From contig CAVZMH010000015.1 of assembly GCA_963776345.1 (NCBI GenBank), positions 256,001-320,000 on the forward strand: DNA of 64,000 nucleotides, given 5' to 3'. The notes beneath the pieces were generated by a model. The model saw only the letters and a program-made list of their open reading frames with translations, was not told the origin of the DNA and searched no databases. This DNA comes from an uncultured delta proteobacterium (GTDB lineage Bacteria > Myxococcota > Myxococcia > Myxococcales > Myxococcaceae). Both the position numbers and the translations under genes were made by a program. This document shows positions 54,249 to 58,800 of the stretch, piece by piece. The first letter of the stretch is position 1; every line of letters begins with the position of its first letter.

Positions 54249-56171
54249 GTGACCCTGCTCCGCGCCGCCGACGTCTCGCTCTCGTTCGGGAGCCGCACCC
54301 TCTTCCACGAGCTCACGCTGGTGGTCGAGGAGGACGAGCGCGTGGGGCTGGTCGGGGTGAACGGCTCGGGCAAGTCGACCCTGATGCGCATCCTCGCCGG
54401 CGAGCTGCGGCCCGACGCCGGGGAGCTCCAGCTCCGCCGCGGCGCGCGGGTGACCTTCCTCGCCCAGGAACCCGAGTTCCCGCCCGGGGCGACCGTCGCC
54501 GGCGAGCTGTCCGTGGCCCAGGCGCCTCTCCGCCAGGCGCTGGAGAAGCACCATGCACTCGCCCACCAGCTCGGCTCGCTCGGCGCTGAGCCGCTGGCCC
54601 GCGCCACCGCCCAGCTCGCCGCGCTGGCCGACCGCATCGAGTCGCTGGGCGGCTGGGACACCGAGCACCAGGCGCGCACCTTGCTCGACCGGCTCGGGGT
54701 GAAGGACTGGGACCGGCCGGTGGACCAGCTCTCGGGCGGCGTGCGCAAGCGGGTGGCCATCGCCCGGGCCCTGCTCTCCCGGCCAGATCTCCTGCTCCTC
54801 GACGAGCCCACCAACCACCTGGACGCCGACACCGTGGAGTGGCTCGAGGACGCGCTCGACGCGCTCCCCGGCGCGCTGCTGCTCGTCACCCACGACCGCT
54901 ACTTCCTCGACAGCCTGGTGGACCGGGTGGTGGAGATCCAGCCGGGAGGCGCGCTGGTCTCCTACCCGGGCAACTACCAGGCCTACCTCGAGCAGAAGCT
55001 CGTCGCAGAGGCGGACGCCGAGCGCACCGAGCACAAGCGCGGCCGGTGGATCGCCCAGGAGGTGGCCTGGCTCCGGCGCGGCCCCGAGGCGCGGCGCACC
55101 AAGAGCCGGGCCCGCATCGAGCGCGCCCGGCGGCTCATGGCCGAGCCGCGCTTCCGCCGCCCGCGCGTGCCCGAGCTGCAGCTGGCCGAGGCGCCTCGCC
55201 TGGGCCACACCGTGCTCGAGGCCCGCGACGTCGCCTTCGGGTGGCCGGGGCGCGAGGTGTTCCGCGACGTCTCGCTCCTCGTCCAGTCCGGCGACCGGGT
55301 GGGCATCGTCGGTCCGAACGGCGCGGGCAAGACGACCTTGCTCCGGGTCCTCCTCGGCGAGCTCGCACCCCAGCACGGCACGGTGGTCCGCGGTCGAACC
55401 GTCCGCGTCGCGCACTTCGACCAGGGGCGCGCGTCGCTGGACCCGGAGCAGACGGTGTACGAGGCCGCGTCCAGCGAGGAGCAGGTGGAGCTCGGCGGAC
55501 GGACGGTGGCGCTCCGCGACTACCTCGACGACCTGCTGTTTCCCGTCCCGATGCAGCGGATGAAGGTCGGCGCGCTCTCGGGCGGCGAGCGGAACCGGCT
55601 GCTGCTGGCGCGGCTGTTCCTCCAGGGGGCGAATCTCCTCGTCCTCGACGAGCCGACCAACGACCTCGATCTGCCGACGCTCAACGTCCTCGAGCGGCTG
55701 CTGCTCGGCTTCGGCGGGGCGGTGCTGCTCGTGACCCACGACCGGTACTTCCTGGACAAGGTCGCGACGCGCATCGTGGCCGTGGAGGGCGACGGCAAGG
55801 TGGTCTCCTGGCCGGGGAACTACACGACGTACCGGACGCTCCGGGCGCAGACGATGACATCCGCACCGCCCTCCACGGCCACCAGCGAGGCCCGGGACCG
55901 GCCGACTCCGTCCTCGCGGAACGGCGCCCGACCCTCCGAGCCGACCCGTCCGAGGCGTCTCGGGTACCAGGCGCAGCGCGAGCTCGAGGGCATGGAAGCG
56001 GCGATCGAGGCGGCCGAGGCGCGTCGGGCCGAGGCGGAGGCCGCGCTGCTCCGCCCGGAGGTGTACTCGGACGGGCGCCGGGCGGCCGAGGCGCAGGCGG
56101 CGCTCGCCGCGGCCGCAGTCGAGGTGGACCGGCTGTACGCGCGGTGGGCCGAGCTCACCTCGATCGGGTGA
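54249..56171 (+). CDS. ABC-F ATPase, Uup-like
   Basis: Two ABC domains (GVNGSGKS, GPNGAGKT, DEPTN); linker E.AWLRRGP.ARRTK..ARI; C-terminal LY.RW.EL coiled coil. Confidence 0.93.
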   Translation: MTLLRAADVSLSFGSRTLFHELTLVVEEDERVGLVGVNGSGKSTLMRILAGELRPDAGELQLRRGARVTFLAQEPEFPPGATVAGELSVAQAPLRQALEKHHALAHQLGSLGAEPLARATAQLAALADRIESLGGWDTEHQARTLLDRLGVKDWDRPVDQLSGGVRKRVAIARALLSRPDLLLLDEPTNHLDADTVEWLEDALDALPGALLLVTHDRYFLDSLVDRVVEIQPGGALVSYPGNYQAYLEQKLVAEADAERTEHKRGRWIAQEVAWLRRGPEARRTKSRARIERARRLMAEPRFRRPRVPELQLAEAPRLGHTVLEARDVAFGWPGREVFRDVSLLVQSGDRVGIVGPNGAGKTTLLRVLLGELAPQHGTVVRGRTVRVAHFDQGRASLDPEQTVYEAASSEEQVELGGRTVALRDYLDDLLFPVPMQRMKVGALSGGERNRLLLARLFLQGANLLVLDEPTNDLDLPTLNVLERLLLGFGGAVLLVTHDRYFLDKVATRIVAVEGDGKVVSWPGNYTTYRTLRAQTMTSAPPSTATSEARDRPTPSSRNGARPSEPTRPRRLGYQAQRELEGMEAAIEAAEARRAEAEAALLRPEVYSDGRRAAEAQAALAAAAVEVDRLYARWAELTSIG

Positions 56172-56877
56172 GTGACCTTGCCGTGCCCAGCGCGAGCGCG
56201 CCGTAGACCCCGGCCGCCTCGAAGCTGGGCACGCCTCGCGGGCGATGCGCCCACCCGTTCATCACCAGCGTGAGTCGCAGCTCTCCGCGGGTCCGGAGCC
56301 GGGACACCGGGACGTCGTTCCGGGCATCGAGCACCCCGTGCGTCAGCCGCCCGTCGAAGACGGCGAGGCGGTTCGGGCGAGGGCCGACGAGGTCGGCCTC
56401 GAGCGGAAGCGGGACCAGCGCCGGGTTCCGCGGATCCGGCGCCTGCGCGGTCACCGCGAGCGCGCCGCCCCGCACCCGGTTCAGGAAGAGCACCGAGGAG
56501 ACGCGCGGATGCCGCTGCGGACCGCCGCCCAGGGCCAGGCGCTCGTCCCGGTCGCGGTGGAAGTCCACGCGCACGTCGTGGGTCCACATCCGCGACAGCC
56601 ACCACTCGACCCCGCGCGCGCCCTGCGCACGAAAGCGGGCCGACAGCGCCAGCGCGGCCAGCTCGGGCACGGCGGCGGGCGTCGCGTCGAGGTCGAACCA
56701 GAAGGTCGTCTCGTACGTCCGCCGGAGTCCCTCCGTCCCGAGCCGGCGCACGCTGTCCCGCAGCTTCCGGAACAGCGCCGGCGGGAGCGCCTCGTCGGCG
56801 ATCTCGACCAGGCGCTCCGACCGGACCCCGTCGGCTCGTCGAGGACTCCGCCGGCCAGTGCGCCTCGCCGAGGTCAC
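56155..56877 (-). CDS. 2OG-Fe(II) oxygenase superfamily protein
   Basis: GTGA overlap with upstream gene; GVEWW, FHRD (HxD), SSVLFLN..GG, P.PNRL..FDG.L.HGV, R.TL..N.W. Confidence 0.8.
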   Translation of the reverse strand: MTSARRTGRRSPRRADGVRSERLVEIADEALPPALFRKLRDSVRRLGTEGLRRTYETTFWFDLDATPAAVPELAALALSARFRAQGARGVEWWLSRMWTHDVRVDFHRDRDERLALGGGPQRHPRVSSVLFLNRVRGGALAVTAQAPDPRNPALVPLPLEADLVGPRPNRLAVFDGRLTHGVLDARNDVPVSRLRTRGELRLTLVMNGWAHRPRGVPSFEAAGVYGALALGTARSLTRSR

Positions 56878-57701
56878 CGGCTCACGCCCTGGAACTGCGG
56901 ATGGTCGAGCACCGCCCGCTCGAGCTCCCGAGTGAGCGTCTCCAGGCCGTGCGGAGCCCGCGCGCTGGAACGGCGCCAGCGCTGCAGCCATCTCGCCCCC
57001 AGCGGCGCTGCCAGCGCCGCGGGACCGTCGCTCGCCACCGTGGTCTCCTTCTTCGCCGCCGCGGCCGCGCCCGCTCCCACCCAGAAGCCGGCGAGGAGCA
57101 GCGTCACCCGGGTGCGCGTCGAGGTGCTGTAGGTCGACAGCACGCCGCCGGGCGCGAGGACCTGGCGAACGCGGCGCAGCGCCTCCACCGTCCAGAGGTC
57201 GGGGTTCGCGTGCGGAGAGAACGGGTCGAAGCAGACGACGTTCTGGGGTCCCTCGAGCCGGCCGAGCGCTTCGAGCGCGTCGCCCTCGATCCACGTCCAG
57301 CGCAGCCCCGGTGCCTCGACGGACCTGCGCGCGAGCAGCGACTCGAGGGCCTCTCGATGCGCGGCCTGGACCGGGAACCTCGCCGGGTCGCCCAGCGCGA
57401 GCCGCAACGGCCCGTCGTCCCGCTCGAGGCTGGTCAGCCGGAGCGCCCTGCCCTGCACGCGACGCGCGCAGTCCACCACCGCCAGGGCGTTGGTCGCCGC
57501 GCCGAGGCCCACGTCGAGCACCCGCAGCGGCACATCGGTCCGCTCGGAGAGGCGCTCCACCAGACGCGTCTGCTCCACGTACAGGAGCTCCGCCTCGCGG
57601 CGCGGACCGAGCCCCGGGTGCATGATCTCCCCCGAGCGACGGTCGCGGATGCTGCACTCGCCGCTGCCCAGCACCACCGGCTCGAAGTCGCTCAGGCCCA
57701 C
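56874..57701 (-). CDS. MnmC2/MnmD-like SAM-dependent methyltransferase
   Basis: GE.MH...[39 protein letters not shown]. Confidence 0.85.
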
Positions 57702-58800
57702 AGCGCCCGCATCTCGTCCGCGAGCGCGGTGAGGCGCCCGGCCAGGATCGCCTCGCGCATCCGGCCCATCAGCACCTGGTAGTGCCGCAGGTTGTGGATG
57801 GAGAGAAGGCGGCTCCCGAGCGCGTGCTTCCCCCGCATCAGGTGGTGGACGTAGGCGCGTCCGTGCCTGCGGCAGGTGAAACAGTCGCAGGTCGGGTCGA
57901 GCGGAGCCTCCTCCAGCCGGTGGACCATCCGGGTGATCCGCACCAGGCCCTGGAAGGTGTACGCATAGCCCTGCTGGGCCATCTTGGTCGGGATGATGCA
58001 GTCGAACATGTCGACCCCGCGCTCCACCGCCTCCACCAGGTCGAGCGGCGTCCCGACGCCCATCAGGTAGCGCGGCCGGTCCGCCGGGAGCTGTCCCGCG
58101 ACCCGCGCGTCATCGCGTCGCGGTGCGGCTTCTCCTCGCCCACCGCCAGCCCGCCGATGGCGAAGCCGTGGAACGGCAGCCGGGTGAGGAACTCCACGCT
58201 CCGGTCGCGAAGCTCCGGGTGAATTCCTCCCTGCACGATGCCGAACAGCGCCTGGCCAGTGTCGCGCGCCTGCGCCGCCTCCAGGCTCCGGACCGCCCAG
58301 CGGTGCGTCCGCTCCATCGCCTCGCGCGCCGGCTCGAGCTCCGCCCGCGCGTCGTGCACCACGTCCAGGACCATCATGATGTCCGAGCCGAGGGCCTGCT
58401 GCATCGCGATGCTGCTCTCGGGCGACAGGAGCTGACGGCTGTTGTCGTGGAAGCTCCGGAACTGCGCTCCTCGCTCGGTGATCTCCCGGTCCTCGGGGAG
58501 ACTGAAGATCTGGTACCCGCCTGAGTCGGTGAGCACGCAGCCATCCCACCCCATGAAGCGGTGGATGCCTCCCAGCCGCTCGAAGACCTCGCGGCCGGGC
58601 CGCAGCATCAGGTGGTAGGTGTTCCCGAGCAGGATGCGCGCGCCGGCCTCCCCGGCCTCGTCCACGCTGACGTGCCGGAACGCGGCGTGCGTCGCCACCG
58701 GCATGAAGACCGGCGTCGGGACGTCGCCGCGCCGGGTGTGCAGCACGCCGGCCCGGGCCAGCCCGTCGGTACGCTCGAGCGTGAATCGCAGGGTGCTCAA
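57692..58800 (-). CDS. tgt: tRNA-guanine transglycosylase, divergent paralogue (apparent 1-nt deletion near 58108)
   Basis: [37 protein letters not shown] in one frame; [16 protein letters not shown], Zn site CDCFTC..H in the next frame. Confidence 0.9.

Follow-up and report, generated by a model that had tools for sequence, protein, structure and literature searches.

This study concerns a 64,000-nucleotide stretch of the genome of an uncultured member of the Myxococcaceae (G000:C15:256001-320000, contig CAVZMH010000015.1 of GCA_963776345.1; G+C ~73%), hereafter the window, and in particular a paralogous version of the base-exchanging enzyme Tgt, here termed Tgt2, which it encodes next to an MnmC2-like methyltransferase. 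Together with an oxygenase-like gene, the two lie co-directionally on the minus strand between positions 56155 and 58800:

58063..58800, minus strand: 5' reading frame of Tgt2, from a TTG start at 58800; Tgt profile positions 2-214, with the motifs TDSGG, LDVV and GGLAVGE
58104..58109, minus strand: frameshift site in Tgt2; one base absent (GATGAC-GCGCGG, as against GATGAC plus one base in relatives)
57692..58108, minus strand: 3' reading frame of Tgt2; profile positions 221-353, with the DMFDC nucleophile motif, PTKMAQQG and the zinc site; stop at 57692-57694
56874..57701, minus strand: MnmC2-like S-adenosylmethionine (SAM)-dependent methyltransferase of 275 amino acids (PF05430); GTG start at 57701, stop at 56874-56876
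56155..56877, minus strand: 2-oxoglutarate (2OG)-Fe(II) oxygenase-like protein of 240 amino acids, with a fold like that of prolyl-4-hydroxylase (P4H) and the prolyl hydroxylase domain (PHD) enzymes

The GTG start of the methyltransferase and the stop of Tgt2 overlap by 10 nt in different frames, leaving two open reading frames (ORFs), and the GTG start of the oxygenase gene at 56877 falls within a GTGA that also holds the methyltransferase stop; the oxygenase gene ends at 56155. An earlier reading of this DNA made from its letters alone (hereafter the sequence-only reading) had described these three genes and both overlaps correctly, but it took the Tgt to be one continuous gene, overlooking a 1-nt frameshift. 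The Tgt profile is matched at positions 2-214 in the frame 58063-58800, which beyond the break continues as an out-of-frame run to the stop at 58063-58065, and at positions 221-353 in a different frame spanning 57692-58120, whose zinc site takes the form C-x-C-x-x-C followed by a His 26 residues later.

Scored separately, the two parts of Tgt2 reach 264.4 and 176.3 bits on PF01702, and 261 and 156.8 bits on the NCBI equivalog model TIGR00430, each below its cut-off of 306.75. The intact Tgt2 ortholog from the related genome G003 scores 424.7 bits on the same model and passes that cut-off (the canonical copy scores 489.3); hence, the description of this Tgt as 'divergent' in the sequence-only reading was overstated. 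Its best match in the PDB is the E. coli Tgt (360 bits over 356 residues), and it shares with the bacterial Tgt enzymes (TIGR00430, PF01702; E. coli 10fa, Z. mobilis 1enu) the fold family, the catalytic Asp motifs, the GGLAVGE pocket and the zinc site. To elaborate, TDSGG, the pocket Asp (in LD(V/Q)C), VQGG, GGLAVGE, LMGVG, DMFDC and the zinc ligands are all retained, with roles that we take to be those familiar from the Z. mobilis enzyme. Unlike the canonical Tgt, however, Tgt2 constitutes a separate paralogous clade, is altered in two otherwise conserved motifs (FDEC and PTRNARNG) and is frameshifted in the window copy. In a tree of 46 Tgt2 and six canonical Tgt sequences from three phyla, it stands apart from the latter with a Shimodaira-Hasegawa-like approximate likelihood ratio test (SH-aLRT) support of 100. 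The canonical tgt of this genome (526 bits on PF01702) directly adjoins its only queA at C15:462185-464349, 143 kb from Tgt2. The genome search thus bears out both the presence of an extra Tgt beyond the canonical one and the lack of a queA near the locus, which had been suspected or noted earlier; yajC and secD were not searched for. Tgt2 is never beside queA in the loci examined, being instead beside or fused with the methyltransferase. The genome further encodes QueC and QueF, and therefore preQ1 (7-aminomethyl-7-deazaguanine) can be made. As an aside, two large Myxococcaceae genomes possess a third Tgt locus (G017:C1:1208052-1209105 and G021:C1:4689692-4690744); that of G017 occupies two frames, with the break at profile position 241.

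Tgt2 and the methyltransferase are strongly coupled. The methyltransferase is present in 29 of 41 related genomes, and each of these 29 has a second Tgt locus; in 28 of them, Tgt2 and the methyltransferase gene adjoin each other, and in the remaining one (G024) they are 10 kb apart. Among the 12 genomes lacking the methyltransferase, ten have a single Tgt, and two (G022 and G027) have pieces of Tgt2 at contig ends. A HMMER search with the methyltransferase retrieved 210 representative clusters at E <= 1e-30, with seven of the best 150 being 657-685 amino acids long, and 22 of 23 longer homologs were found to be fusions of PF01702 and PF05430 domains (522-696 amino acids). In a locus pattern search of named genomes, which used nine sequences, at least 583 relatives of the methyltransferase are encoded among the at least 600 pattern matches listed. 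Carriers of the pair in this set include cultivable strains of Myxococcus, Archangium, Hyalangium and Pyxidicoccus. A Tgt lies directly upstream in 44 of the best 80 of these loci, either in one open frame with the methyltransferase (17) or as an adjacent gene (27, one of them a frameshifted Tgt); in the rest it is 1.1 kb off (one locus), not in the locus (29) or the flank is insufficient (six). Clean fused ORFs of 671-689 amino acids occur in lower-GC genomes, the fused forms being found in Bdellovibrionota and Verrucomicrobiota, with the Tgt at the N-terminus and the methyltransferase at the C-terminus. The survey for tgt-MnmC2 pairs and fusions proposed with the sequence-only reading has therefore revealed a strongly conserved linkage that includes true fusions.

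Phylogenetic analysis ties the window pair to these fused proteins through both of its halves. In both the Tgt2 tree (clade support SH-aLRT 100, as above) and the methyltransferase tree, the Myxococcota sequences form one major clade and the fused forms from Bdellovibrionota and Verrucomicrobiota another, the latter with an SH-aLRT support of 100 in the methyltransferase tree. In the methyltransferase tree, the Myxococcota clade is linked to Tgt2 throughout, save for a Corallococcus subclade; in the complete genome of Corallococcus exercitus, Tgt2 and the methyltransferase share a strand but are ~12 kb apart (L049/G041, about 2.868-2.882 Mb). The type VI immunity gene (TsiV-type) located immediately upstream of this Corallococcus methyltransferase is suggestive of an island insertion. 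Two further clades, one of the Bdellovibrionota type (SH-aLRT 98) and one from Verrucomicrobiota (SH-aLRT 100), are unlinked. No common neighbor was found at 15 Tgt-less methyltransferase loci (14 from Bdellovibrionota and Verrucomicrobiota, plus the Corallococcus locus L049). The two domains fall in two ORFs in the window rather than in one polypeptide, yet both halves are orthologous to the fused proteins; hence, by sequence comparison, the Tgt2-methyltransferase pair represents in two genes what other phyla encode as one fused protein. Fusions of this type have been named before: a preprint on alternate routes to mnm5s2U synthesis in Gram-positive bacteria (bioRxiv 10.1101/2023.12.21.572861) mentions, in one sentence of the text available to us, MnmC2 fusions with TGT (COG0343, PF01702), with no function proposed there. 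As far as that text describes them, these fusions have the same two domains as the window pair, and our trees group the window genes with fused forms, the difference being that the window has two genes with a 10-nt overlap. Two records in the trees deserve a separate comment. The Tgt2-methyltransferase locus L059, from a record titled Comamonas sp. KCTC 72670, falls inside the Myxococcus clade in both trees, near Myxococcus sp. CA023, and the record looks mislabeled or contaminated; L055 ('Proteobacteria bacterium') groups at the same place.

The partner enzyme resembles MnmC2/DUF752. It scores 63.6 bits on PF05430, well above the 22-bit cut-off, and shares with MnmC2 (A. aeolicus, PDB 3VYW; the N-terminal domain of E. 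coli MnmC) both the SAM motif DVGLGxxxN and motif IV (D-x-F-S-P..NP..W), the latter aligned to the A. aeolicus enzyme. The D-x-F of motif IV is described, in the portion of PMC3527978 available, as indispensable to methylation at the free amino group that 5-aminomethyluridine (nm5U) carries. Unlike MnmC2 proper, however, the window enzyme falls below the cut-off of the NCBI MnmC2 model NF033855 (85.8 against 136 bits), as do one fused and two unlinked relatives (70-78 bits overall; 70-76 for the unlinked ones), and the family has motifs of its own, an N-terminal GE.MH and a C-terminal HPQF. It is also the only PF05430 gene in the genome.

What further sets this enzyme apart from MnmC2 is its genomic company. 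The textbook substrate of MnmC2 is supplied by MnmE and MnmG. MnmE (PF10396) has no match in this genome, which is 98.4% complete, and the search for MnmG (TIGR00136) yields just 32.5 bits; a 274-bit GIDA match in the same genome is probably TrmFO. With neither enzyme found, the textbook substrate of the methyltransferase is taken away. The same holds for 16 of the 29 methyltransferase-bearing genomes, this one included, namely 12 of this genus along with G030, G031, G036 and G037 (98-100% complete). Conversely, MnmE is present in six of the 12 genomes without the methyltransferase. Within this genus, in which MnmE and MnmG are wanting, Tgt2 and the methyltransferase are both under purifying selection: the median ratio of nonsynonymous to synonymous substitution rates (dN/dS) is 0.087 for Tgt2 (28 pairs) and 0.21 for the methyltransferase (36 pairs). 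In short, the methyltransferase tracks Tgt2 and not the pathway to 5-methylaminomethyluridine (mnm5U). A stray observation concerns G011. Alone among the genomes of this genus, this bin of 2.3 Mb (68% complete) has MnmE and MnmG, which share one contig (G011:C34) and might represent either real retention or contamination.

Against this backdrop, we advance the following mechanism. A 7-deazaguanine of the preQ1 type would be placed in RNA by Tgt2 and N-methylated at its 7-aminomethyl group by the methyltransferase, yielding 7-(methylaminomethyl)-7-deazaguanosine; the methylation might either follow the insertion or act on the free base beforehand, and the RNA target might be G34 of the GUN tRNAs or another site. 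The choice of preQ1 as the substrate base is suggested by the QueC and QueF encoded in the genome, and that of the aminomethyl nitrogen as the probable methyl acceptor by analogy with the conversion of nm5U to mnm5U. That Tgt2 inserts a preQ1-type base whose aminomethyl nitrogen is then methylated by its partner is the reading we tentatively favor on the strength of the conserved motifs and linkage, though at somewhat short of even confidence. With a little more hesitation still, we suggest that N-methyl-preQ1 might be an undescribed RNA nucleoside of Myxococcota, Bdellovibrionota and Verrucomicrobiota, made in parallel to queuosine, maybe at a site unserved by the canonical Tgt. The idea of a nucleoside-modification pathway advanced in the sequence-only reading is hence retained in its core, the strongly conserved coupling of Tgt2 and the methyltransferase, and abandoned in its third element, the oxygenase (see below).

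Several observations weigh against the N-methyl-preQ1 proposal. Tgt2 scores as an ordinary Tgt on TIGR00430 (the 424.7 bits of the intact ortholog). Our full-text literature search found no N-methylated preQ1 in RNA, an examination of 12 linked loci revealed no third gene conserved alongside the pair, and no preQ1 riboswitch or other Rfam family was detected in the 16 loci searched. Twelve of the 29 genomes that carry the pair possess MnmE, and in G017 and G021, both complete genomes, the methyltransferase query matches nothing but the linked enzyme. The unlinked clades comprise 10 loci of the Bdellovibrionota type and 13 from Verrucomicrobiota without an adjoining Tgt, and all three of the tested genomes that have an unlinked copy only possess one Tgt, queA and MnmE. 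This co-occurrence implies that the family may ancestrally be an ordinary nm5U methylase, such that the unlinked enzymes may be just that and the linked ones could retain the same substrate. Lastly, the Tgt2 frame in the window is broken, and this strain may lack a working pathway altogether.

Taken to their end, some of these points lead to an explanation that invokes nothing new, in which Tgt2 is a redundant queuosine Tgt and the methyltransferase a stand-alone MnmC2 making mnm5(s2)U, the two being linked or fused as both serve wobble modification. The methyltransferase being the sole PF05430 gene of the genome, with A. aeolicus MnmC2 as its closest solved relative, speaks for such an explanation, as do the MnmE genes accompanying the unlinked members in three of three genomes and the pair in 12 of 29. 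So does the listing of a TGT fusion among MnmC2 fusions in the portion of the preprint cited above (10.1101/2023.12.21.572861). It has nevertheless to contend with the 16 genomes in which neither MnmE nor MnmG was found and which keep the pair under purifying selection, and with the score of the methyltransferase below the NF033855 cut-off (85.8 against 136 bits). Moreover, the Chthoniobacterales genome G044 has an unlinked methyltransferase as well as a Tgt2 that continues in frame into the N-terminus of a methyltransferase, and such a coexistence of linked and unlinked paralogs fits two different jobs. Further, queuosine and mnm5U occur on different tRNAs, and therefore a fusion of Tgt with MnmC2 would gain no shared substrate. 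That the methyltransferase simply completes mnm5s2U, an outcome which had been anticipated as the deflating one for the pathway idea, is in particular weakened by the failure to find MnmE or MnmG here or in 15 other pair-bearing genomes. On balance, we regard this explanation as quite improbable; were it to hold, the pair would be just an odd gene arrangement.

A different set of alternatives arises from the places where Tgt2 departs from the canonical enzyme. Across the 46 Tgt2 sequences, as compared with the six canonical ones, FDEC is replaced by LD(V/Q)(C/V) and PTRNARNG by PT(K/Q)(M/L)AQ(Q/R)G, both changes affecting conserved positions beside the active site. We take the altered positions to be F155, E157, R286, R289 and N290 in Z. 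mobilis numbering. The region concerned contacts RNA: in the part of PMC5395182 available, Arg286 of helix alpha-B is placed beside the ribose-34 and phosphate-35 pockets of Tgt. Such remodeling of the RNA-contact region is the reason for suggesting above that the site may be one that the canonical Tgt does not serve. It also lends itself to a broader alternative, namely that both enzymes cooperate as proposed but on a target or base other than preQ1 at G34 of the GUN tRNAs, be it a site elsewhere in RNA, some other RNA or DNA, or a different 7-deazaguanine bearing an amine. In addition to the changes in the FDEC and PTRNARNG regions, such an alternative would be favored by the GUN tRNAs being served by a canonical Tgt in these cells already. 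However, both the base pocket (D156, GGLAVGE with its Glu, and the Gln of VQGG) and the zinc domain match those seen in bacterial Tgt of the tRNA type, and no Dpd-like or defense genes are seen among the neighbors examined; we hence view it as unlikely.

The comparison with Dpd systems is instructive since they offer the closest chemical parallel. According to the accessible text of PMC10516641, mdPreQ1 is made in phage DNA by DpdA, which inserts preQ1, and DpdM, which makes 7-(methylamino)methyl-7-deazaguanine, DpdM being a DUF3109 metalloprotein unrelated to MnmC2. As described there, the product chemistry is the same as that proposed for Tgt2 and the methyltransferase. In contrast to DpdA, which by that description acts on DNA, Tgt2 scores as a tRNA-type Tgt, is encoded on bacterial chromosomes, and has no defense or phage context: a Pfam search revealed no conserved partner near 12 linked loci or in the flanks within the window.

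The same altered residues, along with the architecture of a Tgt N-terminal to a methyltransferase, could also be accommodated if Tgt2 were a non-catalytic module binding the anticodon loop, like the eukaryotic QTRT2, and delivering the methyltransferase to RNA. Yet, all catalytic, base-pocket and zinc residues are kept in the 46 Tgt2 sequences from three phyla, and Tgt2 is under strong purifying selection (dN/dS 0.087), making a QTRT2-like role highly improbable in our estimate.

The proposal for the family is to be distinguished from the state of the module in this particular strain. Where a bacterial Tgt would be expected to have one uninterrupted reading frame, that of the window Tgt2 switches at 58104-58109, where the frame offset relative to both G007 and G003 shifts. 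In an alignment with ten same-genus relatives, exactly one base is absent from the window copy; the base is present and the gene open in all ten. Likewise, contigs of close relatives from four of four public runs (three studies) have the extra base behind 58109. The comparison suggests that the deletion is private to this assembly, and it may be either an assembly error or a very recent mutation. We consider an assembly error, with Tgt2 intact in the organism, moderately probable, the alternative being a real and very recent inactivation. With an X placed at the break, Tgt2 is 96.5% identical to the protein of its nearest ortholog, and its dN/dS against eight relatives is 0.04-0.08, with no signs of decay; the break is therefore either very recent or an artefact. 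Further, a conserved ABC-F ATPase gene 4.5 kb away (61676-63302) is split by a single-base indel at 62666, and the relative G007 has a frameshift at a place that is intact in the window; indel errors thus look common in these assemblies. Against an assembly error stand the lack of any public run found to contain this strain (none reached half of the sampled words, 0.40 being the highest share), the position of the absent base in a two-base run rather than a long homopolymer, and the genome completeness of 98.4%. If the deletion is real, the Tgt2-methyltransferase module is dead in this strain. A programmed frameshift was also considered: a -1 slip after ATG ACG would give back the M-T-A-R-V of the relatives at the break, and the candidate was rejected from the sequence, there being no slippery heptamer.

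An ORF-based census of frameshifts, blurred by the spurious open frames of 73% GC DNA, turned up as clear cases those in Tgt2 and the ABC-F gene in the window and one in G007. The split ABC-F gene is on the plus strand, with residues 1-330 in one frame and 331-542 in the next, corresponding to a protein of 542 amino acids in G007; both halves are ~95% identical to this intact ortholog, and the indel lies within 5 kb of the Tgt2 break. Downstream of the ABC-F stop, the segment 63315-63940 displays several more changes in frame offset relative to G007 and G003, along with a reduced G+C (0.68-0.70) and a high AT skew. No tandem repeat was found in the window between 61000 and 64000, and no Rfam family between 59000 and 64000.

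The remaining gene of the trio, which the sequence-only reading had drawn into the pathway as an optional oxidizing step, fares differently. Its product has no Pfam match at E <= 0.1 and no NCBIfam match, and its 652 homologs at E <= 1e-3 are mostly unnamed Myxococcota proteins, with PF13640 present on two of 120 listed. H107, D109, H180 and R201 are invariant in 23 sequences, forming an H-x-D...H...R signature in which the Arg would bind 2OG. The AlphaFold model, with a predicted local distance difference test (pLDDT) score of 85.5, displays the double-stranded beta-helix fold bearing the iron triad and the Arg, and its best Foldseek matches are to the P. putida prolyl-4-hydroxylase (4j25, 4iw3) and human PHD2 (E ~6e-8, TM-scores 0.43-0.59). 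Given this prolyl-hydroxylase-like fold and the invariant residues, the label of 2OG-Fe(II) oxygenase stands. While the fold and the H-x-D...H...R residues are as in the P4H/PHD-type enzymes (P. putida PPHD and human PHD2), the window protein differs in having no Pfam match, an identity of 12-20% and a family mostly confined to Myxococcota.

Its association with the pair is shallow. The oxygenase gene is beside the methyltransferase only in this genus, being distant or on other contigs elsewhere; for example, its neighbors in G017 and G021 are a phosphodiesterase-family gene on one side and an SNF2 helicase gene on the other, far from the pair. Even among same-genus relatives, ~900 bp separate it from the methyltransferase in four of the 11 that have it (G002, G006, G009 and G012), and in G009 (L022:506-1498), the sole case examined, the gap is filled by an alpha/beta-hydrolase gene; therefore, the GTGA overlap of the window is not conserved even within the genus. 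The phyletic patterns of the two genes are also decoupled in seven of 41 genomes: G022, G026 and G029 have the oxygenase without the methyltransferase, and the oxygenase was not found in G011, G014, G030 and G036, all with the methyltransferase. On account of this genus-limited linkage, the decoupled phyletic pattern and the protein-hydroxylase-like fold, we rejected the oxygenase as a third member of the pathway; the three-gene linkage envisaged earlier did not hold up, and the oxygenase is probably an unrelated, genus-specific neighbor.

The genes flanking the trio are both on the opposite strand:

54249..56171, plus strand: ABC-F ATPase gene, convergent with the end of the operon
58873..61062, plus strand: DEAD-box/DUF3516 helicase gene, divergent from Tgt2, with ~70 bp between the starts

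With the helicase diverging from the Tgt2 start and the ABC-F gene converging at the far end, the Tgt2, methyltransferase and oxygenase genes look like one transcription unit. An ABC-F ATPase gene also adjoins the fusion in a Pseudobdellovibrionaceae locus (L082:5173-6999) and the methyltransferase in an unlinked Bdellovibrionaceae locus (L103:2264-3868), maybe by chance.

In conclusion, the window adds two aspects to the fusions already recorded: the module can also take the form of two overlapping genes, and purifying selection maintains the pair in a genus that yielded neither MnmE nor MnmG. To our knowledge, bacterial Tgt has no known product other than queuosine. The conservation of a second Tgt tied to an amine methyltransferase suggests that preQ1 has a further fate in RNA, drawing on an N-methyl-preQ1 chemistry that has so far been seen only in phage DNA, as mdPreQ1. 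If this were true, the Tgt2-methyltransferase module would give the bacterial epitranscriptome a second deazaguanine branch, independent of the first.

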